Part shown: positions 15,461 through 54,011 of the stretch, in pieces
How the letters are laid out: each line of letters opens with the position of its first letter
Position numbering within the stretch: position 1 is the stretch's first letter
Source: Escherichia coli
GTDB taxonomy: Bacteria; Pseudomonadota; Gammaproteobacteria; Enterobacterales; Enterobacteriaceae
Assembly: GCF_024502345.1 (NCBI RefSeq)
Contig: NZ_JALDNN010000001.1
Reading direction: 5' to 3' (one strand)
Length of the DNA stretch: 64,000 bases
Translations under genes and position numbers: made by a program
Notes under the pieces: generated by a model
Told to the model about the DNA's origin: nothing
What the model saw: the letters and a program-made list of their open reading frames with translations, nothing else
Databases searched by the model: none

Positions 15461-15652
15461 ATAGTAAGCAGTGGCTCATTCACCGACTTATGTCAGCCCC
15501 TTCGGGACGTGCTACATAAAATTCGAATGACGCACAACAAGGTGCCTGCCGTCCAACTTCTGATATCAGCGTAGCTATATCAACCATCGGGCGAAACGTC
15601 GAGTTAGGCACCGCCTTATTCCATAACAAAGCCGGGTAATTCCCGGCTTTGT
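15461..15652 (+). ncRNA. glmY: Small RNA GlmY
   Basis: Sequence agtggctcattcaccgacttatgtcagcccc... recognised as GlmY; ends in hairpin gccggg-taatt-cccggc plus U-tract (15631-15653); lies between purL and glrK on the same strand. Confidence 0.8.
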
Positions 15653-22753: not shown

Positions 22754-23947
22754 TCAAATCTGTCGTAACTGCGCCTCAACATACAAATAGCCAATCCCCA
22801 ACACCTGTTGTGCGCGGCTTAATTGCCCAAAGCCAATTTGCGTTGCTTTCACGCTCGGCCCTTCGTCGCGGTCGAACGGGTTAAATCCCGTCTGGCGAAT
22901 AATGGTATTAAGCCAGTGCTCACCAAAGGCACAACTGCGACCGTACAACCAAATCTGATTAATATTGAGGATGTTGAGGAAGTTATACAGACTCAAACCA
23001 ATGGCATTGGCACTGCGATCAACCCAGCTGGTGATCCACGGTTCTCCACTCTGCCAGGCAGCGATTAACTGCGCGGTTGTCAGTTTTTCAGGATCAAGCT
23101 GAGTATTAACCGGTTGTGATTTTAGCCATACCCGCGCCTGTTTTTTTAATGCACTTAACGAGGCGACGGTTTCCAGGCAGCCGTAACGTCCACAGTCGCA
23201 GACGACGCCATCCGGATTAACGATGGTGTGACCAATCTGTCCGCTACCATACAAACTGCCGCGATAAATTTGCTCGTTAATCACGAACGACGAGCCAATG
23301 CCGTAATCAACGTTGATCACGCAGAAATCCCGTTCCTGCGAATTATTTTGCCATTTCTCCGCCAGCGCCAGCATCACGCAGTCATTATCGACCATCACCC
23401 GAATGCCCAGCTTCTCTTCCAGCAGATACTTCACCTCAACCGGCGTTGTCCACGGCGCTTGCGGCATGGTTTGCGACACGCCGGTCACCGGATCAACCTG
23501 ACCGTGGATTGCCAGCGCCAGATTGATGGTGCGGTCCGGCCACAATTTACGGTGGCGATGCCAGCATTTTTCGATTTCGGACAGCAGCGCCTGCGGCGTC
23601 GGTGCATCAATCTGTAAATACTCAAATTCACCTTTCGGACTTAAACAAGCATTAGCAACCTGACACTCAATACTGGTGGGCGTCACGTTCAGGCACAGCG
23701 TCCAGTCACCTTCCGGCGCAATCAGCCATGTACCGCTACTATGCCCGCGCGTCTGGCTTTCATCGTCGATATTCACCACCCGTTTTTCGCTTTCCAGTTC
23801 CTGCAAAATATTACTGACTGCCGGAATCGAAATTTGCGCCAGCCGGGCCAGCGTTGATTTATTGGCGCGCTTTTGCCGGTACAGCAGTTCCAGAATCACG
23901 CATTTGTTATGGTGGCGAATCTGTTGATTGTTAATGCAGGCTCTCAT
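22754..23947 (-). CDS. yphH: ROK (NagC/XylR)-family transcriptional regulator YphH
   Basis: 397 aa from ATG 23947; N-terminal HTH and ROK sugar-kinase-like fold with CxCGxxGC zinc motif. Confidence 0.85.
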   Translation of the reverse strand: MRACINNQQIRHHNKCVILELLYRQKRANKSTLARLAQISIPAVSNILQELESEKRVVNIDDESQTRGHSSGTWLIAPEGDWTLCLNVTPTSIECQVANACLSPKGEFEYLQIDAPTPQALLSEIEKCWHRHRKLWPDRTINLALAIHGQVDPVTGVSQTMPQAPWTTPVEVKYLLEEKLGIRVMVDNDCVMLALAEKWQNNSQERDFCVINVDYGIGSSFVINEQIYRGSLYGSGQIGHTIVNPDGVVCDCGRYGCLETVASLSALKKQARVWLKSQPVNTQLDPEKLTTAQLIAAWQSGEPWITSWVDRSANAIGLSLYNFLNILNINQIWLYGRSCAFGEHWLNTIIRQTGFNPFDRDEGPSVKATQIGFGQLSRAQQVLGIGYLYVEAQLRQI

Positions 23948-24064
23948 CTTCACTAAACCTTGTTTAGTTAATTGCGTGATTATTCCGCGAAAACATTGCC
24001 AGATTGTTCAATACACTGCCACAAATCTTTTAATTCAGTATGTCTTGTTAATATTGAGGGCACC

Positions 24065-27000
24065 ATGACTCCAGTAAAAGTGTGGCAAGAGCGCGTTGAG
24101 ATCCCGACCTATGAAACCGGGCCGCAGGATATACATCCCATGTTCCTGGAAAATCGCGTTTATCAGGGATCGTCCGGCGCGGTTTATCCCTACGGCGTGA
24201 CCGATACGCTGAGCGAGCAGAAAACCCCGAAATCCTGGCAGGCGGTGTGGCTGGAAAACGACTACATCAAAGTGATGATCCTGCCGGAACTGGGCGGTCG
24301 GGTGCATCGCGCATGGGATAAAGTGAAACAACGCGATTTTGTCTATCACAATGAAGTCATTAAACCTGCGCTGGTGGGGCTGCTGGGACCGTGGATCTCT
24401 GGCGGGATTGAGTTTAACTGGCCGCAACACCATCGCCCGACCACCTTTATGCCCGTTGATTTCACCCTCGAAGCCCATGAAGACGGCGCACAGACGGTGT
24501 GGGTCGGCGAAACGGAGCCGATGCACGGTTTACAGGTGATGACAGGTTTCACCCTGCGCCCTGACCGGGCGGCGCTGGAAATCGCCAGCCGCGTCTATAA
24601 CGGCAACGCCACGCCGCGTCATTTCTTGTGGTGGGCCAACCCGGCAGTGAAAGGGGGGGAAGGGCATCAGAGCGTTTTCCCGCCGGATGTGACTGCGGTG
24701 TTTGATCACGGCAAACGGGCCGTCTCCGCTTTCCCCATCGCCACCGGCACTTACTACAAAGTGGACTACTCCGCTGGAGTGGACATTTCTCGCTATAAAA
24801 ATGTGCCCGTTCCAACCTCATATATGGCCGAAAAATCGCAGTACGATTTTGTTGGCGCGTGGTGTCACGATGAAGATGGCGGTTTGCTACACGTTGCCAA
24901 CCACCATATTGCGCCAGGTAAAAAGCAGTGGAGCTGGGGACACAGTGAATTTGGCCAGGCGTGGGATAAGAGCCTAACTGATAATAACGGCCCGTATATC
25001 GAACTGATGACCGGTATTTTTGCCGATAACCAGCCCGATTTTACCTGGCTTGATGCTTACGAAGAGAAGCGTTTTGAGCAGTATTTCCTGCCTTATCATT
25101 CTTTGGGCATGGTGCAAAATGCCTCCCGCGATGCGGTGATAAAACTCCAGCGTAGTGAGCGGGGGATTGAGTGGGGGCTGTATGCCATCTCTCCGTTGAA
25201 CGGATACCGCCTGGCGATCCGCGAAATCGGCAAATGCAACGCGTTACTTGATGATGCCGTGGCACTGATGCCTGCGACCGCCATCCAGGGCGTGTTGCAC
25301 GGTATCAATCCTGAAAGGCTGACCATTGAGCTCTCCGATGCCGACGGCAATATTGTACTGAGTTATCAGGAACATCAGCCGCAAGAGTTGCCGTTGCCGG
25401 ACGTCGCCAAAGCGCCACTGGCAGCACAAGACATTACCAGTACAGATGAAGCCTGGTTTATCGGTCAGCATCTGGAGCAATATCATCACGCCAGCCGTTC
25501 ACCGTTCGATTACTACCTGCGCGGCGTGGCGCTGGATCCGCTGGATTACCGCTGTAACCTGGCGCTGGCGATGCTGGAATATAACCGCGCAGATTTCCCG
25601 CAAGCGGTGGCGTATGCCACTCAGGCTCTGAAACGCGCACATGGGCTGAACAAAAATCCGCAGTGCGGACAGGCGAGTTTGATTCGCGCCAGTGCTTACG
25701 AACGTCAGGGACAATATCAACAAGCCGAAGAGGATTTCTGGCGTGCGGTCTGGAGCGGCAACAGTAAAGCCGGAGGCTATTATGGTCTGGCACGACTGGC
25801 GGCGCGTAATGGTAACTTCGACGCGGGTCTGGATTTTTGCCAACAAAGTCTTCGCGCCAGCCCAACCAATCAGGAAGTGCTTTGCCTGCATAATCTGCTG
25901 CTGGTGTTAAGTGGTCGTCAGGACAACGCGCGTTTGCAGCGCGAGAAACTGCTGCGCGATTATCCGCTGAACGCCACTCTGTGGTGGCTGAACTGGTTCG
26001 ATGGTCGTAGCGAATCAGCTCTCGCGCAGTGGCGCGGTCTGTGTCAGGGACGCGACGTTAACGCCCTGATGACCGCCGGGCAACTGATTAACTGGGGAAT
26101 GCCCACCCTGGCGGCAGAGATGCTGAACGCACTGGACTGCCAGCGCACGCTGCCGCTTTACCTGCAAGCCAGCTTGCTGCCGAAAGCCGAACGTGGCGAA
26201 CTGGTCGCAAAAGCCATTGATGTCTTTCCGCAGTTTGTCCGTTTCCCGAATACGCTGGAAGAAGTGGCGGCGCTGGAGAGTATTGAAGAGTGCTGGTTTG
26301 CTCGCCATTTACTGGCCTGCTTCTACTACAACAAACGTAGCTACAACAAAGCCATTGCCTTATGGCAACGTTGCGTAGAGATGTCGCCGGAGTTTGCCGA
26401 CGGCTGGCGCGGGTTAGCGATCCATGCGTGGAATAAGCAACACGATTATGAGCTGGCCGCGCGTTATCTTGATAATGCTTATCAGCTTGCGCCGCAGGAT
26501 GCACGTCTGCTTTTCGAACGGGATTTGCTTGATAAGTTAAGTGGAGCCACACCGGAGAAACGACTGGCGCGTCTGGAAAATAATCTGGAAATTGCGCTGA
26601 AACGCGACGACATGACCGCAGAACTGCTCAATTTATGGCATCTCACGGGGCAGGCAGACAAAGCGGCGGACATTCTCGCCACGCGCAAATTCCACCCGTG
26701 GGAAGGCGGGGAAGGGAAGGTCACCAGTCAGTTTATCCTCAACCAGTTATTACGCGCCTGGCAGCATCTTGATGCCAGACAGCCGCAGCAGGCCAGCGAA
26801 CTGCTTCATGCCGCGCTGCATTATCCGGAGAATTTAAGCGAAGGCCGTTTACCGGGGCAAACTGATAACGACATCTGGTTCTGGCAGGCGATATGCGCCA
26901 ACGCGCAGGGCGATGAAACTGAAGCGACGCGTTGTTTACGTCTGGCGGTGACCGGCGATCGCACCATTAACATCCACAGTTATTACAACGATCAGCCGGT

Positions 27001-27346
27001 TGATTATCTCTTCTGGCAAGGAATGGCGCTGCGACTGCTGGGCGAACAACACACCGCACAGCAACTGTTTAGTGAAATGAAACAGTGGGCGCAAGAGATG
27101 GCGAAAACCAGTATTGAGGCGGATTTCTTTGCTGTTTCACAACCTGATCTGTTGTCGCTGTATGGCGATTTACAACAGCAGCATAAAGAAAAATGCCTGA
27201 TGGTGGCGATGCTGGCGTCCGCGGGACTCGGGGAGGTTGCGCAATATGAGTCTGCTCGCGCTGAATTGACGGCGATTAATCCGGCCTGGCCGAAAGCGGC
27301 ATTATTCACCACCGTGATGCCTTTTATTTTTAACCGCGTTCACTAA
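24065..27346 (+). CDS. yphG: Large TPR-repeat protein YphG (function unknown)
   Basis: Start set at ATG 24065 (MTPVKVWQERVEIPTYE, 1093 aa); multiple TPR-like repeats in the C-terminal half. Confidence 0.85.
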   Translation: MTPVKVWQERVEIPTYETGPQDIHPMFLENRVYQGSSGAVYPYGVTDTLSEQKTPKSWQAVWLENDYIKVMILPELGGRVHRAWDKVKQRDFVYHNEVIKPALVGLLGPWISGGIEFNWPQHHRPTTFMPVDFTLEAHEDGAQTVWVGETEPMHGLQVMTGFTLRPDRAALEIASRVYNGNATPRHFLWWANPAVKGGEGHQSVFPPDVTAVFDHGKRAVSAFPIATGTYYKVDYSAGVDISRYKNVPVPTSYMAEKSQYDFVGAWCHDEDGGLLHVANHHIAPGKKQWSWGHSEFGQAWDKSLTDNNGPYIELMTGIFADNQPDFTWLDAYEEKRFEQYFLPYHSLGMVQNASRDAVIKLQRSERGIEWGLYAISPLNGYRLAIREIGKCNALLDDAVALMPATAIQGVLHGINPERLTIELSDADGNIVLSYQEHQPQELPLPDVAKAPLAAQDITSTDEAWFIGQHLEQYHHASRSPFDYYLRGVALDPLDYRCNLALAMLEYNRADFPQAVAYATQALKRAHGLNKNPQCGQASLIRASAYERQGQYQQAEEDFWRAVWSGNSKAGGYYGLARLAARNGNFDAGLDFCQQSLRASPTNQEVLCLHNLLLVLSGRQDNARLQREKLLRDYPLNATLWWLNWFDGRSESALAQWRGLCQGRDVNALMTAGQLINWGMPTLAAEMLNALDCQRTLPLYLQASLLPKAERGELVAKAIDVFPQFVRFPNTLEEVAALESIEECWFARHLLACFYYNKRSYNKAIALWQRCVEMSPEFADGWRGLAIHAWNKQHDYELAARYLDNAYQLAPQDARLLFERDLLDKLSGATPEKRLARLENNLEIALKRDDMTAELLNLWHLTGQADKAADILATRKFHPWEGGEGKVTSQFILNQLLRAWQHLDARQPQQASELLHAALHYPENLSEGRLPGQTDNDIWFWQAICANAQGDETEATRCLRLAVTGDRTINIHSYYNDQPVDYLFWQGMALRLLGEQHTAQQLFSEMKQWAQEMAKTSIEADFFAVSQPDLLSLYGDLQQQHKEKCLMVAMLASAGLGEVAQYESARAELTAINPAWPKAALFTTVMPFIFNRVH

Positions 27347-27722
27347 ATCTTATTAACTGTAATATTTGAGCGGCACGCGCTGCCGCTCATCACAAAATAA
27401 TTAGAATAAGCCGTTGTAAATAAAAACCCTACAGGAGGCACTATGCCTAAAAAAATGAGAACAACCCGTAATTTATTATTAATGGCTACGCTATTGGGTA
27501 GCGCACTATTTGCCAACGCTGCGGATAAAGAAATGACCATTGGCGCAATATACCTTGATACCCAGGGATATTACGCTGGAGTGCGTCAGGGCGTTCAGGA
27601 TGCGGCAAAAGATTCTTCAGTACAGGTACAGTTAATTGAAACTAACGCCCAGGGTGATATTTCGAAAGAAAGTACCTTTGTTGATACCCTCGTGGCGCGT
27701 AATGTCGATGCCATTATTTTAT

Positions 27723-27731
27723 CGGCAGTGT
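27723..27731. repeat. Target-site duplication, left copy (CGGCAGTGT)
   Basis: Identical 9-mer immediately flanks both IS ends. Confidence 0.9.
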
Positions 27732-28788
27732 GGCTTTGTTGAATAAATCGAACTTTTGCTGAGTTGAAGGATCAGATCACGTATCTTCCCGACAACGCAG
27801 ACCGTTCCGTGGCAAAGCAAAAGTTCAAAATCACCAACTGGCCCACCTACAATAAAGCCCTCATCAACCGTGGCTCCATAACTTTCTGGCTGGATGATGA
27901 AGCTATTCAGGCCTGGTATGAGTCAGCAACACCTTCTTCACGAGGCAGACCTCAGCGCTATTCTGACCTTGCCATCACGACTGTGCTGGTCATTAAACGC
28001 GTATTCAGGCTGACCCTGCGCGCTGCGCAGGGCTTTATTGATTCCATTTTTTCTCTGATGAACGTTCCGCTACGCTGCCCGGATTACAGCTGTGTCAGCA
28101 GGCGGGCAAAGTCGGTTAATGTCAGTTTCAAAACGCCCACCCGGGGTGAAATCGCACACCTGGTAATTGATTCCACCGGGCTGAAGGTCTTCGGTGAAGG
28201 CGAGTGGAAAGTCAAAAAGCATGGCCAGGAACGCCGCCGTATCTGGCGTAAGCTGCATCTCGCCGTTGACAGTAAAACACATGAAATCATCTGCGCTGAC
28301 CTGTCGCTGAACAACGTTACGGACTCAGAGGCCTTCCCCGGGTTAATCCGGCAAACCCACCGGAAAATCAGGTCAGCCGCCGCCGATGGCGCTTACGATA
28401 CCCGGCTATGTCACGATGAACTGCGGCGTAAGAAAATCAGCGCGCTTATCCCTCCCCGAAAAGGTGCGGGTTACTGGCCCGGTGAATATGCAGACCGTAA
28501 CCGTGCAGTGGCTAATCAGCGAATGACCGGGAGTAATGCGCGGTGGAAATGGACAACAGATTACAACCGTCGCTCGATAGCGGAAACGGCGATGTACCGG
28601 GTAAAACAGCTGTTCGGGGGTTCACTGACACTGCGTGACTACGATGGTCAGGTTGCAGAGGCTATGGCCCTGGTACGAGCGCTGAACAAAATGACGAAAG
28701 CAGGTATGCCTGAAAGCGTGCGTATTGCCTGAAAACACAACCCGCTACGGGGGAGACTTACCCGAAATCTGATTTATTCAACAAAGCC
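27732..28788 (+). mobile_element. IS903-group insertion sequence (IS5 family), 1057 bp
   Basis: 18-bp perfect terminal inverted repeats ggctttgttgaataaatc at 27732-27749 and reverse-complemented at 28771-28788; single DDE transposase ORF; flanked by 9-bp direct repeats. Confidence 0.9.
27809..28732 (+). CDS. IS903-type transposase
   Basis: Frame open from 27764; GTG at 27809 gives 307 aa, matching the remembered IS903 transposase length; true start codon uncertain. Confidence 0.8.
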   Translation: MAKQKFKITNWPTYNKALINRGSITFWLDDEAIQAWYESATPSSRGRPQRYSDLAITTVLVIKRVFRLTLRAAQGFIDSIFSLMNVPLRCPDYSCVSRRAKSVNVSFKTPTRGEIAHLVIDSTGLKVFGEGEWKVKKHGQERRRIWRKLHLAVDSKTHEIICADLSLNNVTDSEAFPGLIRQTHRKIRSAAADGAYDTRLCHDELRRKKISALIPPRKGAGYWPGEYADRNRAVANQRMTGSNARWKWTTDYNRRSIAETAMYRVKQLFGGSLTLRDYDGQVAEAMALVRALNKMTKAGMPESVRIA

Positions 28789-28797
28789 CGGCAGTGT
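28789..28797. repeat. Target-site duplication, right copy (CGGCAGTGT)
   Basis: Identical to 27723-27731. Confidence 0.9.
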
Positions 28798-29514
28798 CTG
28801 AAAATGGCAGTAGCCGTACCGTTCGTCGCGCCAGTGAAGCGGGTATTCCGGTGATTTGCTACAACACCTGTATTAATCAAAAGGGGGTCGATAAATATGT
28901 CTCGGCGTATCTGGTCGGCGATCCGCTGGAATTTGGTAAAAAACTGGGTAACGCTGCCGCCGATTATTTTATTGCCAATAAAATTGACCAGCCGAAAATT
29001 GCCGTCATCAATTGCGAAGCCTTTGAAGTTTGTGTGCAGCGACGTAAAGGATTTGAAGAAGTATTAAAATCCCGCGTTCCCGGCGCGCAAATTGTCGCTA
29101 ATCAGGAAGGGACTGTTTTAGATAAAGCGATTTCCGTTGGTGAAAAACTGATTATCTCCACGCCGGATCTCAACGCCATTATGGGGGAGTCGGGCGGTGC
29201 GACACTCGGCGCGGTAAAAGCGGTACGTAATCAAAATCAGGCCGGAAAAATTGCTGTTTTCGGTTCGGATATGACAACCGAAATTGCTCAGGAGCTGGAA
29301 AACAATCAGGTGCTGAAAGCGGTAGTGGATATTTCCGGTAAGAAAATGGGCAATGCTGTTTTCGCGCAAACATTGAAGGTTATCAATAAACAAGCCGACG
29401 GTGAAAAAGTGATTCAGGTGCCAATCGATCTCTATACCAAAACGGAAGATGGTAAACAGTGGCTGGCAACGCACGTTGATGGTCTGCCCTAATCGCTGAT
29501 TCGCAGAGGTCCCT

Positions 29515-31026
29515 ATGTTCACGGCAACAGAGGCAGTCCCGGTAGCAAAAGTGGTGGCAGGAAATAAGCGTTACCCCGGCGTCGTTGCGCTGGATAACGT
29601 TAACTTCACGCTCAATAAAGGCGAAGTTCGTGCGCTGTTAGGTAAAAACGGCGCGGGCAAATCGACTCTCATTCGAATGCTTACCGGCAGCGAACGCCCG
29701 GATAGCGGTGATATCTGGATTGGCGAGACGCGACTGGAAGGTGACGAAGCTACGTTGACTCGCCGTGCCGCTGAACTGGGGGTTCGTGCGGTTTATCAGG
29801 AGTTAAGTCTGGTGGAGGGACTGACGGTGGCGGAAAACCTCTGCCTCGGTCAGTGGCCCCGCCGCAACGGCATGATTGATTACCTGCAAATGGCGCAGGA
29901 TGCCCAACGTTGCTTACAGGCGCTGGGCGTTGACGTTAGCCCTGAACAACTTGTTTCAACGCTAAGCCCGGCGCAAAAGCAACTGGTGGAAATTGCGCGG
30001 GTGATGAAGGGCGAGCCGCGCGTGGTCATTCTTGATGAACCTACCAGTTCGCTTGCCAGTGCGGAAGTTGAACTGGTGATCAGCGCGGTGAAAAAGATGT
30101 CGGCACTGGGCGTGGCGGTAATTTATGTCAGCCACCGGATGGAAGAAATTCGCCGCATTGCCTCCTGTGCCACTGTTATGCGCGATGGTCAGGTGGCGGG
30201 CGATGTGATGCTCGAAAACACCTCCACGCATCATATTGTGTCGCTAATGCTAGGGCGTGATCACGTTGATATTGCGCCGGTAGCCCCTCAGGAAATTGTG
30301 GATCAGGCCGTGCTGGAAGTCCGTGCATTACGCCATAAGCCCAAGCTGGAGGATATCAGCTTTACGTTACGTCGCGGCGAAGTGCTTGGCATTGCTGGCC
30401 TGCTGGGGGCAGGGCGCAGTGAATTGCTGAAGGCGATTGTTGGGCTGGAGACGTATGAACAGGGCGAAATTGTTATCAACGGCGAGAAAATCACGCGCCC
30501 CGATTACGGCGACATGCTGAAACGCGGCATTGGCTATACGCCAGAAAACCGCAAAGAAGTGGGGATCATTCCCTGGTTGGGCGTTGACGAAAATACAGTG
30601 CTGACCAATCGGCAAAAAATCAGCGCCAACGGAGTGCTGCAATGGTCCACCATCCGCCGCCTGACCGAAGAGGTGATGCAGCGGATGACGGTCAAGGCCG
30701 CCAGTAGCGAAACGCCCATCGGCACGCTTTCTGGTGGCAATCAGCAAAAAGTGGTGATCGGTCGTTGGGTCTATGCCGCCAGCCAGATTTTGTTGCTCGA
30801 CGAGCCAACGCGCGGCGTCGATATCGAAGCCAAACAGCAGATTTACCGTATTGTCCGTGAGCTGGCTGCCGAAGGAAAAAGCGTGGTGTTTATCTCCAGT
30901 GAAGTGGAGGAGTTGCCGCTGGTGTGCGACCGCATCCTGTTGTTACAGCACGGTACGTTCTCGCAGGAGTTTCACTCGCCGGTCAATGTGGATGAGCTGA
31001 TGTCCGCCATTCTGTCTGTGCACTGA
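29515..31026 (+). CDS. yphE: Sugar ABC transporter ATP-binding protein (duplicated ATPase domains)
   Basis: 503 aa; two Walker A/ABC signature (LSGGNQQK) modules typical of ribose/xylose-type importer ATPases. Confidence 0.9.
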   Translation: MFTATEAVPVAKVVAGNKRYPGVVALDNVNFTLNKGEVRALLGKNGAGKSTLIRMLTGSERPDSGDIWIGETRLEGDEATLTRRAAELGVRAVYQELSLVEGLTVAENLCLGQWPRRNGMIDYLQMAQDAQRCLQALGVDVSPEQLVSTLSPAQKQLVEIARVMKGEPRVVILDEPTSSLASAEVELVISAVKKMSALGVAVIYVSHRMEEIRRIASCATVMRDGQVAGDVMLENTSTHHIVSLMLGRDHVDIAPVAPQEIVDQAVLEVRALRHKPKLEDISFTLRRGEVLGIAGLLGAGRSELLKAIVGLETYEQGEIVINGEKITRPDYGDMLKRGIGYTPENRKEVGIIPWLGVDENTVLTNRQKISANGVLQWSTIRRLTEEVMQRMTVKAASSETPIGTLSGGNQQKVVIGRWVYAASQILLLDEPTRGVDIEAKQQIYRIVRELAAEGKSVVFISSEVEELPLVCDRILLLQHGTFSQEFHSPVNVDELMSAILSVH

Positions 31027-31050
31027 TGAATTTTACCGAGGAACCTGAAG

Positions 31051-32049
31051 ATGTCTGCTTCGTCATTATCATTGCCGCAGGGCAAGAGCGTCTCGCTCAA
31101 ACAATTTGTCAGTCGCCATATTAATGAGATCGGTTTGCTGGTGGTAATCGCCATTCTTTATCTGGTCTTCTCCCTGAACGCGCCTGGCTTTATCTCATTG
31201 AATAACCAGATGAACGTGCTGCGCGATGCCGCCACCATTGGGATTGCCGCCTGGGCGATGACGCTGATTATTATCTCCGGTGAAATTGATGTCAGCGTTG
31301 GGCCGATGGTGGCTTTTGTCTCGGTGTGCCTGGCATTTTTGCTGCAATTTGAAGTTCCGCTGGCGGTGGCGTGTCTGCTGGTGTTGCTGTTAGGCGCGCT
31401 GATGGGAACGCTCGCCGGGGTGCTGCGCGGCGTGTTTAACGTACCAAGTTTCGTTGCCACACTGGGGCTGTGGAGCGCCCTGCGCGGAATGGGGCTGTTT
31501 ATGACCAACGCACTGCCAGTGCCGATTGACGAAAACGAGGTGCTGGACTGGCTGGGCGGACAATTTCTCGGTGTGCCAGTATCCGCGCTGATCATGATGG
31601 TGTTGTTTGCGCTGTTTGTGTTCATTAGCCGAAAAACCGCCTTCGGGCGCTCGGTTTTTGCCGTTGGCGGTAATGCCACGGCGGCGCAGTTGTGCGGTAT
31701 TAACGTTCGTCGGGTGCGCATTCTTATCTTTACCCTTTCGGGATTATTAGCGGCGGTGACCGGCATTTTGCTGGCGGCACGCCTCGGTTCCGGTAACGCA
31801 GGTGCCGCAAACGGTCTGGAGTTTGACGTCATCGCTGCGGTCGTGGTCGGCGGTACGGCACTTTCCGGCGGTCGCGGTTCCCTGTTCGGTACATTGCTTG
31901 GTGTGCTGGTGATTACGCTAATCGGTAACGGTCTGGTGCTGCTCGGTATTAACTCCTTTTTCCAGCAGGTGGTACGCGGCGTCATCATCGTGGTGGCGGT
32001 GCTGGCGAATATCTTGCTGACCCAGCGAAGCAGTAAAGCGAAACGCTAA
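31051..32049 (+). CDS. yphD: Sugar ABC transporter permease
   Basis: 332 aa, multi-span hydrophobic protein of RbsC/AraH type. Confidence 0.9.
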   Translation: MSASSLSLPQGKSVSLKQFVSRHINEIGLLVVIAILYLVFSLNAPGFISLNNQMNVLRDAATIGIAAWAMTLIIISGEIDVSVGPMVAFVSVCLAFLLQFEVPLAVACLLVLLLGALMGTLAGVLRGVFNVPSFVATLGLWSALRGMGLFMTNALPVPIDENEVLDWLGGQFLGVPVSALIMMVLFALFVFISRKTAFGRSVFAVGGNATAAQLCGINVRRVRILIFTLSGLLAAVTGILLAARLGSGNAGAANGLEFDVIAAVVVGGTALSGGRGSLFGTLLGVLVITLIGNGLVLLGINSFFQQVVRGVIIVVAVLANILLTQRSSKAKR

Positions 32050-32114
32050 ACCTTAACGCCCCTGGCGCGGGTGCGGCAGGGATGAAAATTAATCGTATTG
32101 TTAATGAGGGATTT

Positions 32115-33176
32115 ATGAAAACGATGCTGGCAGCTTATTTACCAGGAAATTCAACCGTCGATCTGCGGGAAGTTGCGGTGCCGACGCCGGGGATTAACCA
32201 GGTACTGATCAAAATGAAATCCTCCGGGATTTGCGGAAGCGATGTCCACTATATCTATCATCAACACCGTGCCACGGCGGCGGCACCCGATAAACCGTTA
32301 TACCAGGGATTTATCAACGGTCATGAACCGTGCGGGCAGATTGTGGCGATGGGGCAAGGCTGCCGCCATTTTAAAGAGGGCGACCGCGTGCTGGTGTATC
32401 ACATTTCTGGCTGTGGTTTTTGCCCGAACTGCCGCCGCGGCTTTCCTATCTCTTGTACTGGCAAAGGAAAAGCGGCTTACGGCTGGCAGCGTGACGGCGG
32501 TCATGCCGAATATCTGCTGGCGGAAGAAAAAGATCTGATCCTCCTGCCGGATGCGCTGAGCTACGAAGATGGTGCGTTTATCAGTTGCGGCGTTGGCACG
32601 GCCTATGAAGGGATTTTGCGCGGCGAAGTTTCCGGCAGCGATAACGTGCTGGTGGTCGGTCTGGGGCCGGTCGGCATGATGGCGATGATGCTGGCGAAAG
32701 GTCGCGGTGCAAAACGGATCATCGGCGTTGATATGCTGCCGGAACGTCTGGCGATGGCAAAACAGTTAGGGGTGATGGATCACGGCTATTTAGCAACCAC
32801 CGAAGGTCTGCCGCAGATTATCGCCGAACTCACCCACGGTGGCGCGGATGTTGCGCTCGATTGTTCTGGTAATGCCGCAGGTCGCTTGCTGGCACTGCAA
32901 TCCACCGCTGACTGGGGACGGGTGGTTTACATTGGTGAAACCGGAAAAGTGGAATTCGAGGTCAGCGCCGATCTGATGCACCATCAACGGCGGATTATCG
33001 GCTCCTGGGTGACCAGTCTGTTCCATATGGAAAAATGCGCCCACGATTTGACTGACTGGAAGCTGTGGCCGCGTAACGCCATTACCCATCGCTTCTCGCT
33101 GGAACAGGCAGGTGATGCCTATGCGCTGATGGCGAGCGGCAAATGCGGGAAAGTTGTGATTAACTTCCCGGATTAA
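32115..33176 (+). CDS. yphC: Zinc-dependent alcohol/polyol dehydrogenase
   Basis: Start set at ATG 32115 (MKTMLAAY..., 353 aa); GHEPCG zinc motif and GLGPVG NAD-binding motif. Confidence 0.85.
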   Translation: MKTMLAAYLPGNSTVDLREVAVPTPGINQVLIKMKSSGICGSDVHYIYHQHRATAAAPDKPLYQGFINGHEPCGQIVAMGQGCRHFKEGDRVLVYHISGCGFCPNCRRGFPISCTGKGKAAYGWQRDGGHAEYLLAEEKDLILLPDALSYEDGAFISCGVGTAYEGILRGEVSGSDNVLVVGLGPVGMMAMMLAKGRGAKRIIGVDMLPERLAMAKQLGVMDHGYLATTEGLPQIIAELTHGGADVALDCSGNAAGRLLALQSTADWGRVVYIGETGKVEFEVSADLMHHQRRIIGSWVTSLFHMEKCAHDLTDWKLWPRNAITHRFSLEQAGDAYALMASGKCGKVVINFPD

Positions 33177-33187
33177 GGAGTTAGCGG

Positions 33188-34060
33188 ATGACCATCTATA
33201 CCTTATCCCACGGGTCGCTAAAGCTGGACGTTTCTGACCAGGGCGGCGTAATCGAAGGCTTCTGGCGCGATACGACGCCGCTCTTACGTCCTGGTAAAAA
33301 AAGCGGTGTGGCAACCGATGCCTCATGTTTTCCGCTGGTGCCATTTGCAAACCGGGTGAGCGGCAACCGTTTTGTCTGGCAGGGGCGTGAGTATCAACTG
33401 CAACCGAATGTTGAGTGGGATGCGCACTATCTACACGGCGATGGCTGGCTGGGCGAGTGGCAATGTGTCTCGCACAGCGATGATAGTTTGTGTCTGGTGT
33501 ATGAACATCGCAGCGGTGTCTATCACTATCGGGTAAGTCAGGCGTTTCATTTAACGGCGGATACGCTGACGGTGACGCTCTCTGTCACCAATCAAGGAGC
33601 AGAGACGCTGCCATTTGGTACCGGCTGGCATCCTTATTTTCCGTTGTCACCACAAACGCGGATTCAGGCGTAGGCGAGCGGTTACTGGCTGGAACGGGAG
33701 CAGTGGCTGGCGGGTGAGTTTTGCGAGCAGCTACCGCAGGAACTGGATTTTAACCAGCTCGCGCCGTTGCCGCGCCAGTGGGTGAACAATGGTTTTGCCG
33801 GATGGAATGGTCAGGCCCGCATCGAGCAGCCGCAGGAAGGTTATGCCATCATCATGGAAACGACGCCACCTGCACCGTGTTATTTCATCTTTGTTTCCGA
33901 CCCTGCGTTTGATAAAGGATATGCGTTTGATTTCTTCTGTCTGGAACCGATGAGCCATGCGCCGGATGATCATCATCGCCCGGAAGGGGGTGATCTCATT
34001 GCGCTAGCACCAGGGGAATCAACAACTTCAGAGATGTCGTTGCGGGTAGAGTGGCTGTAA
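33188..34060 (+). pseudogene. yphB: yphB (aldose 1-epimerase family) interrupted by in-frame amber codon
   Basis: Single frame 33188-34060 (290 codons) broken only by TAG at 33671-33673; both segments (161 aa and downstream) read as one mutarotase-like protein. Confidence 0.8.
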
Positions 34061-34069
34061 TTTATTAAA

Positions 34070-34101
34070 TGCCGGATAAGGCGTTCACGCCGCATCCGGC
34101 A
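34070..34101. repeat. REP element
   Basis: tgccggataaggcgttcacgccgcatccggca palindromic unit between convergent yphB and yphA. Confidence 0.6.
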
Positions 34102-34107
34102 TCTTTC

Positions 34108-34530
34108 CTAACGCCGATCGAGAGAAATTGCCCCCGGCCCGGTAATTGCCAATAGCAAGAACGCGCCAGCGATACTGACATTCTTCCAGAAATTAATCAT
34201 ATTTGGCCCAACCGCATCGCCGGTCATATCCCAGTAATGGTGACCAATCACCGCCGTACCCAGCGTGTAGAAAATAAACAGCACTGCCAGCGGACGGGTG
34301 AAAAAGCCAAGCACGATTAATATCGCGGCGGGCACTTCCATAACTACCGCAATAATCGCTGCCAGCATCGGCATTGGCGCGCCCAACGAGGCCATATATT
34401 GGACCGTACCGTCAAAGCCCATCATTTTGGGAAAACCAAAAATAATGAAAATTAAGACCACGGCGATACGGGCAATTAATAACAAAACGGGGCGGGCAGC
34501 TCCAAAATCAAAATAACGTAGTGTGTTCAT
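34108..34530 (-). CDS. yphA: DoxX-family inner membrane protein YphA
   Basis: Start set at ATG 34530 (MNTLRYFDF..., 140 aa); four hydrophobic segments. Confidence 0.85.
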
Positions 34531-34626
34531 AACCAATCCCTTTGCAAGATAATGTGATTTAAACGTAATACACACTCTTGCACCTCGCCACGCCCCAGGC
34601 GTTGAGATATTCGCTAATTATCCTGG

Positions 34627-35838
<1,212 letters not shown>

Positions 35839-36651
35839 TTAAAGATCCAGCCCAGCCGCTACGTGGCGAATGCCGCGAATCGCTAAACCCGCATCAGCGT
35901 TGATCATCACACCGCTTAATGCGCGATTATTGCGCCGCGATGCCAACATCACATACGGCCCCGTAAAATCCGCCGGTTGCGGGAAAAATTGCAGCGGTAA
36001 AATGGCGGCAATTTTCTCCGGCGTCAGAGACTGCATTATCGAGGTTTCACTTTGCCCGAGCGCCTGTGGGCCGCGCAGGTCGCTGGCCATACCACACGGG
36101 CCGACGCCATTCACCCGCACTTTCGGTGCCAGTTCATAAGCCAGTTGGCGAATAAGTCCGGTTGCGGCATGTTTACTGGCGGTGTACAGCGGGCCACCGC
36201 CGCCAGGATACCAGGCGGCATTTGACAGTGTGAAAATCATGCTGCCTTCACTGGCGATTAACGCCGGAGCGCAGGCTTTTGCGCCCAGCAGGTAACCGAG
36301 AACATTGACGTTAAACAGCTCGTGGAAGCCGGTTTCGAGCGTCTCTGCGGGAGTATTAACCAGTGAGGCATTGTGATCCCAGATGCCTGCATTGCCGATA
36401 AAACAATCCAGCTTGCCGGAACGAGTCAGGATCTGATCGACCGCGCGTTGATAATCGGCATAACAGGTCACGTTACCTTCCACCGCCAGAATATGTTCGC
36501 CAAATCGCTGACGCAGACTGGCGACTTTTGCCGCCGACAGTTCCAGCGTGGCAACCTGCGCGCCTTCTTCGATAAATCGCTCGACCAGCGCCAGCCCTAA
36601 TCCCGATCCGCCGCCGGTAATAAAAATGGACTCGTTATGCAGATCGCTCAT
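35839..36651 (-). CDS. hcaB: 2,3-dihydroxy-2,3-dihydrophenylpropionate dehydrogenase (SDR)
   Basis: 270 aa short-chain dehydrogenase, TGGGSGLG motif. Confidence 0.92.
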
Positions 36652-36967
36652 GGCTGCGCCTCCGGTAAGTCGATGAAAATGTCACCACCTTCAACGTGTA
36701 CTGGATAAGTGGTGAGCGGATCGGTGGCGGGCAGGCATAACGCTTTCCCCGTTTTCAGGCAAAAACTGGCGGCGTGTAGCGGGCACTCCACCGTGGCGTC
36801 ATCTTCCAGATACCCTTCTGACATTGACGCATTACCATGGCTGCAACGATCGTTAATGGCATAAAACTCGCCGCCAACGTTGAACAGGGCGATGACGGGC
36901 GAGGTATCGATCCGGAGAGCCTCACCCTCCGGCACATCCGCAACGGGACACGCATAAATTCGATTCA

Positions 36968-36968
<1 letters not shown>
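36648..36968 (-). CDS. hcaC: Rieske ferredoxin component
   Basis: 106 aa with CxH...CxxH Rieske motif. Confidence 0.92.
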
Positions 36969-38880
<1,912 letters not shown>

Positions 38881-38979
38881 CTATTTTTGTGCCATAAGGA
38901 TGTTGCTGGTTGGTTGCTAATATGTGAAATAGTTAATTTCTACCAGCTGAGACGTTTTTTCGATAACAAGGGGAAGGTG

Positions 38980-39870
38980 ATGGAACTACGGCATTTACGC
39001 TATTTCGTCGCAGTGGCGCAGGCACTGAACTTTACCCGTGCGGCGGAAAAACTGCATACCTCACAGCCTTCGTTAAGCAGCCAGATCCGCGATCTTGAAA
39101 ACTGTGTCGGTGTTCCGTTACTGGTGAGGGATAAGCGCAAAGTCGCGTTGACGGCGGCGGGAGAATGTTTTCTCCAGGACGCGCTGGCAATCCTCGAACA
39201 AGCGGAAAATGCCAAATTACGGGCGCGGAAAATTGTTCAGGAAGACAGACAATTAACCATTGGCTTTGTGCCATCGGCGGAAGTGAATTTACTGCCAAAA
39301 GTATTACCGATGTTTCGTCTCAGACAGCCAGACACCTTGATTGAGCTGGTGAGTTTAATCACCACGCAACAGGAGGAAAAAATTCGCCGTGGTGAACTCG
39401 ACGTCGGCTTAATGCGCTATCCTGTTTATAGCCCGGAGATTGATTATCTGGAGCTTTTTGACGAACCATTAGTGGTTGTGTTACCGGTTGATCACCCTTT
39501 AGCACATGAAAAAGAGATCACCGCCGCGCAACTGGATGGCGTGAATTTCGTCAGTACCGATCCGGCGTATTCCGGTTCGCTTGCGCCGATCGTTAAAGCG
39601 TGGTTTGCGCAAGAAAACAGCCAGCCAAATATCGTCCAGGTGGCAACGAATATTCTGGTGACCATGAATCTGGTGGGCATGGGGCTGGGCGTCACTTTGA
39701 TACCCGGTTATATGAATAATTTTAATACCGGACAGGTTGTTTTTCGTCCCATTGCCGGAAATGTGCCTTCCATTGCTTTACTGATGGCGTGGAAGAAAGG
39801 GGAGATGAAGCCGGCATTACGCGATTTCATCGCCATTGTGCAGGAACGTTTGGCAAGCGTAACGGCATAA
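38980..39870 (+). CDS. hcaR: LysR-family activator of the hca operon
   Basis: Start set at ATG 38980 (MELRHLRYFVAVAQ, 296 aa); divergent from hcaE. Confidence 0.88.
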   Translation: MELRHLRYFVAVAQALNFTRAAEKLHTSQPSLSSQIRDLENCVGVPLLVRDKRKVALTAAGECFLQDALAILEQAENAKLRARKIVQEDRQLTIGFVPSAEVNLLPKVLPMFRLRQPDTLIELVSLITTQQEEKIRRGELDVGLMRYPVYSPEIDYLELFDEPLVVVLPVDHPLAHEKEITAAQLDGVNFVSTDPAYSGSLAPIVKAWFAQENSQPNIVQVATNILVTMNLVGMGLGVTLIPGYMNNFNTGQVVFRPIAGNVPSIALLMAWKKGEMKPALRDFIAIVQERLASVTA

Positions 39871-40029
39871 TTACGCATTATTTTTGCAACATGCGTCGCG
39901 GATCGCAGTTTTTTAGTGCTTGTGAACTGGCGTTACAGACATCGGGAAGCAGGCTCGAATATTCTTATTTTTCAACTTGCACCAACATTCGATTAACCCC
40001 AGACTAACGCCTCCTGACGGGAGGGACTC

Positions 40030-46051: not shown

Positions 46052-46291
46052 TTTAACCGTCCTGTTTCGTGTTGCATCTGCGTTGACTGCACATACTCAC
46101 TCCGGTCACTTACTTATGTAAGCTCCCGGAGATTCGTAAGTTTGTCAACTTGCTGAAACCCGAAACAGTTAGGTTAAAGATAACAAGATATTAGAATCAG
46201 GCCGGGGCGTATCGCGCTCCGTAAACACGGTCGTACATCCAGCCGGTAGCCTGGTTCCTTGCATTGAGTGATGTACGGAGTTTATAGAGCA

Positions 46292-52889: not shown

Positions 52890-53666
52890 ATGTCCGAAAC
52901 AAAAAACGAACTTGAAGACCTGCTGGAAAAAGCAGCAACCGAACCGGCGCACCGCCCGGCCTTTTTCCGTACTCTACTGGAATCCACCGTCTGGGTGCCA
53001 GGTACGGCGGCGCAGGGCGAGGCTGTGGTTGAAGATAGCGCGCTTGATTTACAGCACTGGGAAAAAGAAGACGGCACCAGCGTTATTCCTTTTTTCACCT
53101 CGTTAGAAGCACTTCAACAGGCGGTTGAAGACGAACAGGCATTTGTCGTAATGCCCGTTCGCACATTGTTTGAGATGACCCTTGGCGAAACGCTCTTCCT
53201 TAATGCCAAACTGCCGACCAGTAAAGAATTTATGCCGCGTGAAATCAGTTTGTTGATTGGTGAAGAGGGAAATCCGCTGAGCAGCCAGGAAATCCTGGAA
53301 GGCGGTGAATCGCTGATATTATCGGAAGTCGCAGAGCCGCCAGCACAAATGATTGATTCACTCACCACCTTATTTAAAACTATTAAGCCGGTGAAGCGTG
53401 CTTTTATATGTTCAATTAAAGAGAACGAAGAGGCACAGCCTAATTTACTTATTGGCATTGAAGCCGATGGTGATGTCGAAGAAATTATTCAGGCGGCGGG
53501 AAGTGTAGCGACCGATACATTACCTGGCGATGAACCAATCGATATTTGTCAGGTGAAAAAAGGGGAAAAAGGAATTAGCCACTTTATTACCGAACATATT
53601 GCGCCATTCTATGAACGTCGTTGGGGTGGTTTTTTGCGTGACTTTAAACAGAACCGGATAATCTAA
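52890..53666 (+). CDS. sseB: SseB family protein (serine sensitivity enhancing B)
   Basis: 258 aa from ATG 52890 (MSETKNELEDLL); alternative GTG 52881 would add 3 aa. Confidence 0.85.
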   Translation: MSETKNELEDLLEKAATEPAHRPAFFRTLLESTVWVPGTAAQGEAVVEDSALDLQHWEKEDGTSVIPFFTSLEALQQAVEDEQAFVVMPVRTLFEMTLGETLFLNAKLPTSKEFMPREISLLIGEEGNPLSSQEILEGGESLILSEVAEPPAQMIDSLTTLFKTIKPVKRAFICSIKENEEAQPNLLIGIEADGDVEEIIQAAGSVATDTLPGDEPIDICQVKKGEKGISHFITEHIAPFYERRWGGFLRDFKQNRII

Positions 53667-53697
53667 AATATGCCGCCCCAAAGGGCGGCATTCGGGC

Positions 53698-53823
53698 TTA
53701 CCTGCTGTTCTGAAGGTTGTTAACCACCAGTAAATTGTTGCCGGAGAGACTCAGGTTATTATTTACCTCGGTTAACAGCGCACCAGAAACAATAAGTACG
53801 ATACAAAAGCACCGTATCTTCAT
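53698..53823 (-). CDS. Candidate small hydrophobic protein (41 aa), TimP-like type I toxin
   Basis: ATG at 53823 (minus) to TAA 53700-53698; translation MKIRCFCIVLIVSGALLTEVNNNLSLSGNNLLVVNNLQNSR; basic N-terminus then hydrophobic stretch; weak GGA SD; in-frame upstream ATG at 53835 also possible. Confidence 0.4.
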   Translation of the reverse strand: MKIRCFCIVLIVSGALLTEVNNNLSLSGNNLLVVNNLQNSR

Positions 53824-53886
53824 TGTGCGGTCCATGCGAAGACCGCATCACGACAGCACCACTGGCGATATTGCCGCGATAGCAAG

Positions 53887-53903
53887 CGCTGAGACGCGCT
53901 TGC
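53887..53903. repeat. 17-nt direct repeat copy A (cgctgagacgcgcttgc) within ryfA leader, embedded in palindrome agcaagcgc-tgagac-gcgcttgct
   Basis: Exact 17-mer recurs at 54047-54063. Confidence 0.85.
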
Positions 53904-54011
53904 TCTAACGGTCGCGGAACATCCTTTCCTTAAGCCAGCGCCCGCTTGCGAGACGGCGGAAAGGGCCGCAGTGGATAATACACTAACAGAACAATAATAA
54001 CTCTCTTTTGC

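Follow-up and report, generated by a model that had tools for sequence, protein, structure and literature searches.

The yph operon of the Escherichia coli strain analysed here is interrupted by a mobile element, and the locus raises the question of which element this is, how and when it arrived, and what is left of the gene in which it lies. The DNA studied, referred to below as the window, is a stretch of 64,000 nucleotides (RefSeq assembly GCF_024502345.1, contig NZ_JALDNN010000001.1). In a first-pass annotation, a 1057-bp element with perfect 18-bp terminal inverted repeats, one transposase open reading frame (ORF) and identical flanking 9-mers had been described; the measurements agreed (1057 bp, 18 of 18 repeat positions, one long ORF, and the same 9-mer on both sides). 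Almost certainly, an IS903B copy transposed into codon 96/97 of chromosomal yphF and produced a null allele, very recently and probably with neutral effect. The parts of the element and its direct repeats are listed here.

27732..28788, + strand: complete IS903B-type insertion sequence, with the transposase co-oriented with the yph operon and 100% identity to annotated plasmid copies
27732..27749, + strand: left terminal inverted repeat GGCTTTGTTGAATAAATC, located by pattern search
28771..28788, - strand: right terminal inverted repeat, 18/18 against the left one, located by pattern search
27809..28732, + strand: transposase gene, 307 aa from GTG 27809, with NCBIfam and Pfam matches and residues D121, D193 and E259
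27723..27731, no strand: left 9-bp target-site duplication CGGCAGTGT, one copy of which is present at the empty site of relatives
28789..28797, no strand: right 9-bp target-site duplication CGGCAGTGT, likewise present once at the empty site of relatives

The two inverted repeats are identical at all 18 positions and mismatch from base 19. With up to two mismatches tolerated, GGCTTTGTTGAATAAATC was matched in the 64-kb window at just the two element ends (chance expectation 0.04), and the element is present as a single copy within the window. The direct repeat CGGCAGTGT adjoins both ends, is exactly 9 bp long and cannot be extended by one base in either direction. The 9-mer by itself is not rare (three occurrences in the window against 0.54 expected), and its evidential weight comes from its placement against both element ends, not from rarity. 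The only long ORF of the element is on the + strand and measures 322 aa from TTG 27764 or 307 aa from GTG 27809; the TTG 27764 start, giving 322 aa, is the one used in the NCBI annotation of this frame.

Over its full length (1057/1057 nt), the element is identical to many plasmid copies from E. coli, Salmonella, Citrobacter and Klebsiella. These are labelled by NCBI as 'IS5-like element IS903B family transposase', and copies at an identity of at least 90% are found in more than 5000 plasmid records. The transposase was matched by the NCBIfam model for IS5-family transposases (NF033579, 357.6 bits against a cutoff of 140) and contains the Pfam domains DDE_Tnp_1_5 (PF13737) and DDE_Tnp_1 (PF01609). 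Residues 121, 193 and 259 (307-aa numbering) are D, D and E, which we take to be the IS903 catalytic triad of the Derbyshire laboratory papers. The transposase frame was open in 27/27 distinct full-length sampled copies (92.7-99.9% identity to the window copy), and the same ends and length were seen in these 27 distinct copies of the group. On these matches, the assignment to the IS903 group of the IS5 family can be regarded as secure. The isoform name IS903B would follow from identity to the NCBI-labelled copies, and the label is broad, covering 95.5-100% identity and not separating isoforms. The element had earlier been named as IS903; the group and family stood (100% identity to labelled copies, NF033579 and Pfam), and the name was adjusted to IS903B, the label of the identical copies. 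No other family was indicated. The element is intact, and its ORF, its ends, the widespread identical copies and the isogenic empty sites described below suggest that it is transposition-competent. One sampled copy, beside aph(3') (H54), was considered as a Tn903 context and rejected; in that case an IS903B had inserted into the resistance gene.

Deletion of the element and one 9-mer restored an open yphF of 327 codons (984 nt), as had been predicted, and the restored gene matches the intact yphF of two of the relatives listed below, L012 and L020, at 100% identity. E. coli RefSeq genomes (AH04, ET670 and CFSAN004176) name the interrupted gene yphF and describe its product as a substrate-binding protein; the gene lies there between yphG and yphE in the order yphG-yphF-yphE-yphD-yphC-yphB. 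The similarity of restored YphF to binding-protein models of the AlsB/MglB/RbsB type was weak and below the cutoff. An 800-mer containing the reconstructed empty site aligned without a break in 5393 of the 5426 complete E. coli genomes. Isogenic relatives were found by look-up of the exact YphG and YphE proteins of the window. Four independent assemblies aligned with 100.000% identity and 0 gaps to the window from which the element and one repeat had been deleted, over 13282 bp in L012 (GCA_050022275.1), 9677 bp in L013 (SRR24000611), 5907 bp in L014 (ERR14375843) and 11512 bp in L020 (GCA_001484235.1), and an intact 327-aa yphF is present in all four. The empty site is proven by these isogenic assemblies. 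A clean single CGGCAGTGT, which had been proposed as a check, was found at the exact site in AH04 and ET670 as well as in the four relatives. Because the flanks are 100% identical to those of the empty-site relatives, the insertion is younger than any substitution in the ~13 kb flank. There are zero substitutions in the flanks against the isogenic relatives and zero differences between the element and other IS903B copies; the insertion is very recent, as the first-pass annotation had it.

The same insertion was found in none of the complete E. coli genomes searched, and the 99-aa junction ORF had no record in public collections. As short-read assemblies usually break at IS copies, the missing junction ORF is weak evidence of uniqueness. 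Two candidates for the same event were rejected. The sole record that spanned the whole query, ET670, carries a different IS903-group copy, which is located in yphE. The 232-aa C-terminal ORF (see below) was tried as a marker, and the contigs retrieved with it were relatives at 97.6-98.6% identity with a frameshifted yphF.

Among the 5426 complete E. coli genomes, the yphG-yphF region has an identity of at most 99.0% to any one genome, and the adjacent yphE-hca region reaches 99.5% (window 23000-40000); loci with 100% identity are present in draft and metagenome assemblies. The best complete-genome matches to the empty-site 800-mer (99.0%) were AH04, AH02 and CT01 (NZ_CP081706/701/791). The plasmids of these three strains (NZ_CP081707/702/792, ~94.8 kb; that of CT01 is IncFIB) carry an IS903B copy that is 100% identical to the one in the window. 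This match is probably a coincidence, because over 11 kb of the yph region the identity is only 98.5%.

For IS903, table 1 of PMC2577343 gives the target motif WTTYA-N9-TRAAW, with reference to Hu & Derbyshire (1998) and Hu et al. (2001). The register used here was derived from 23 independent IS903-group insertions with perfect 9-bp duplications, found in viral contigs and at other loci; such duplications were present in 23/32 sampled copies of the group. The symmetrised flanks of the 23 insertions read W T T Y A N adjoining the duplication, and half-sites placed one base off the duplication fitted best (mean 5.91/10 against 4.43 when adjacent). The half-site spacing is thus N9 in the table of PMC2577343, whereas N11 was better in the 23-site sample. 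In the window, the site is TTTTA-T-CGGCAGTGT-C-TGAAA, with the following halves.

27717..27722, no strand: left half of the palindromic target motif (TTTTA + T), directly 5' of the duplication; motif from PMC2577343
28798..28803, no strand: right half of the palindromic target motif (C + TGAAA), directly 3' of the duplication; motif from PMC2577343

The yphF site scores 10/10 in the best-supported register, above all 23 sampled sites. When the IS was removed, 10/10 was reached at 5 of ~62,900 positions in the window, and at a mean of 1.18 positions in simulated windows. The element landed in a consensus target, as is expected for the IS903 family, and yphF offers a tidy natural case of this target being used. 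Nine of the 32 sampled full-length IS903-group copies were without a matching 9-bp duplication (L011, L028, L036, L043, L048, L049, L058, L064 and L071), a pattern consistent with inter-copy recombination, or with intramolecular transposition, in the plasmids and phages that carry them.

Identical copies are overwhelmingly plasmid-borne, and the donor would therefore most likely have been a resident plasmid. The DDE transposase is expected to have made cuts staggered by 9 bp at the 21-bp palindrome that the element prefers as a target, and gap repair would have given the CGGCAGTGT duplication. A possible, if rather unlikely, course of events is replicative transposition, in which a cointegrate with the donor plasmid is formed and then resolved by homologous recombination. 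IS903B is presumed to be replicative and to be without a resolvase, and where direct repeats flank a copy, it may have come from intermolecular transposition followed by resolution or from a simple insertion (PMC4471558); for IS903, the replicative mode has been given as the one mainly used (PMC3003695). Copies without a matching duplication, such as the nine in the sample, are expected if the family also rearranges DNA. Against this, wild-type IS903 reportedly gives mostly simple insertions (Weinert et al.; Tavakoli & Derbyshire 2001). The flanks in the window are colinear with those of the relatives and there is no second copy, which fits either pathway; the end product is identical under both, and the sequence cannot decide between them. 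Of the earlier reading, a recent and simple transposition, the first half holds; a simple event is possible, but a flanked single copy also fits a resolved cointegrate (PMC4471558).

By either pathway, the preferred reading is a very recent IS903B insertion that broke yphF into two pieces. These, and the genes downstream, are as follows.

27443..27742, + strand: yphF 5' fragment, signal peptide and 96 native codons, then WLC-stop, with AGGAGG upstream of ATG 27443
28798..29492, + strand: yphF 3' fragment, native codons 97-327, called as an ORF from GTG 28794 in the right duplication
29515..33176, + strand: yphE, yphD and yphC, all intact, downstream of the insertion and candidates for a polar effect
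33188..34060, + strand: yphB (aldose 1-epimerase) pseudogene, CAG>TAG at codon 162 (33671-33673), in comparison with CFSAN004176 and AH04

Truncation of the signal-peptide-bearing N-terminus at about residue 96 had been noted before, and it was traced to the stop codon TGA 27740-27742, which follows the 96 native codons and lies within the left inverted repeat. By inspection, the signal peptide has a basic n-region, a hydrophobic core and then ANA|A. The GTG at 28794 does reopen the yphF frame, as had been observed; this codon is Val96 of the native gene, and a 232-aa ORF starts there. No Shine-Dalgarno sequence was found upstream of it (ttattcaacaaagcccggca), for which reason the fragment is unlikely to be made. 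The 232-aa product would be without the signal peptide and ~70 residues of the mature N-terminal lobe, and its synthesis and function both appear unlikely. Where this 232-aa ORF appears among the gene calls of other genomes, it does so because 1-bp yphF deletions leave it as the longest remaining ORF. The insertion is a null allele of yphF, and only the 96-residue signal-peptide fragment is translatable from the native start. The product lost would be the periplasmic sugar-binding protein of the YphDEF ABC transporter.

Polarity on yphE-D-C is plausible. The element points the same way as the operon, however, and transcription might in part continue into yphE. In the interval 27300-29600, promoter-like and terminator-like matches were at the level of shuffled sequence. 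No outward promoter-like site was found at the right end at the scan threshold, and the best hybrid outward promoter by inspection, TTCAAC-17-GAAAAT, matches at 7/12 positions. Inside the element, the sole terminator-like hairpin on the + strand is followed by a T-run (28014-28032, -17.6 kcal/mol, z -2.26); it was rejected as a functional terminator, being degraded in about half of the sampled copies.

These results bear on an adaptive or regulatory insertion, in which an outward promoter would drive yphE-D-C or a signal-less 232-aa YphF fragment would be functional. The co-orientation of the element with the operon, the in-frame GTG 28794 and the 232-aa product reported by gene callers in genomes with a frameshifted yphF would suit it. 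However, no promoter-like site faces outward at the right end at the scan threshold and the overall counts are at shuffle level, GTG 28794 is without a Shine-Dalgarno sequence and the fragment is without its signal peptide and part of its mature lobe, the downstream yphB is already a nonsense pseudogene, and the calls elsewhere are merely of the longest ORF left after a frameshift. Such an insertion is considered extremely improbable.

Other signals were seen around the junctions. A perfect 11-nt inverted repeat (27750-27760 / 27816-27826) surrounds the transposase start GTG 27809. The stem is present in the minimum-energy RNA fold (z -1.78), and its arms are invariant in the copy sample; one arm is inside the search pattern, and covariation is therefore uninformative. 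The stem could be a candidate for sequestering the transposase start on read-through transcripts. Sequestering of this kind is known for IS10 and IS50. Between the yphG stop and yphF, at 27367-27389, there is a 9-bp GC-rich hairpin (GAGCGGCAG...CTGCCGCTC, -16 kcal/mol, z -3.87, no T-run), which may be a terminator or an mRNA-stabilising element. On the minus strand, from 27742 to 27713, a promoter-like hybrid TCAACA-18-AATAAT (9/12) spans the junction, with a -35 supplied by the left inverted repeat and a -10 by the flanking yphF sequence, and it is directed antisense into the yphF 5' fragment; the scan overall was at chance level. That the insertion alters transposase expression (raised by yph read-through, or blocked by the 11-bp stem) or rewires yphE-D-C, and so behaves unlike plasmid copies, is very unlikely.

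The yph operon had begun to decay before the element arrived. Among the empty-site relatives, L015-L020 and L022 have the same TAG in yphB, and one of these, L020, is 100% identical; the codon is CAG in L021 and L004. Because the TAG is shared by empty-site relatives, the nonsense mutation in yphB is older than the insertion. With yphB already a pseudogene, the polar effect matters less than the first-pass annotation had assumed. Independent 1-bp deletions in yphF, at nt 71, 227 and 232/257, were found in other E. coli lineages (L005-L010 [yphF 3717-4699]). In EH10-18-47, an IS1A is located in yphF, and the IS903-group copy in yphE of ET670 is 992/1057 identical to that of the window and has the 9-bp duplication GCGAAGTTC. 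Literature searches on yphF/E/D returned matches only to unrelated uses of the names. These patterns suggest that many lineages can do without the operon. Since yphB already carried the nonsense mutation and yphF has repeatedly been lost elsewhere, the insertion is probably selectively neutral, a judgement based on pseudogene patterns.

An assembly artefact with a misplaced repeat, which the absence of the window genome from the complete genomes searched and of the junction from any other assembly might suggest, is next to inconceivable, as a misjoin would not yield an exact 9-bp target duplication abutting both ends, would not hit a perfect target motif, of which 63 kb contain only five, and both junctions are base-perfect against four relatives.

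The IS903B insertion into yphF is thus a known element in an ordinary insertion with typical family behaviour, and only the insertion site is unrecorded. The annotation should list yphF and yphB as pseudogenes and give the 1057-bp element the name IS903B. Because isogenic relatives have the empty site, the insertion is usable as a clean strain-specific marker, and it could serve typing or the dating of IS903B activity in the lineage. It also adds one more case of the yph sugar-uptake operon being dispensable and repeatedly decaying in E. coli. Elsewhere in the window, Rfam matches above the gathering score were obtained for ryfA (53665-53969, -), rncO (2586-2800, +), GlmY (15470-15617, +), the iscRS stability element (46181-46290, +) and ohsC, the antitoxin sRNA of shoB (6213-6289, -), all of which are expected in this E. 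coli chromosomal region.

Compared with other known cases, the inactivations in ET670, EH10-18-47 and L005-L010 are different events at different positions, and none is common to the window. Against the IS903B copies annotated by NCBI in enterobacteria, on plasmids as well as chromosomes, the element itself shows no difference: the 18-bp ends, the 9-bp duplication, the one DDE transposase and the preferred target all agree, and its sole novelty is the insertion site at yphF codon 96/97, unrecorded in the collections searched. IS903 of Tn903 and IS102 of pSC101 are the classic members of the group, and are isoforms a few percent apart in sequence. The features of these classic members are also found in the window element, namely the length of 1057 bp, the 18-bp inverted repeats, the 9-bp duplication and the 307-aa transposase with D121/D193/E259. 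The palindromic, AT-rich flanking target motif is likewise common to IS903 (PMC2577343, table 1) and the copy in the window.
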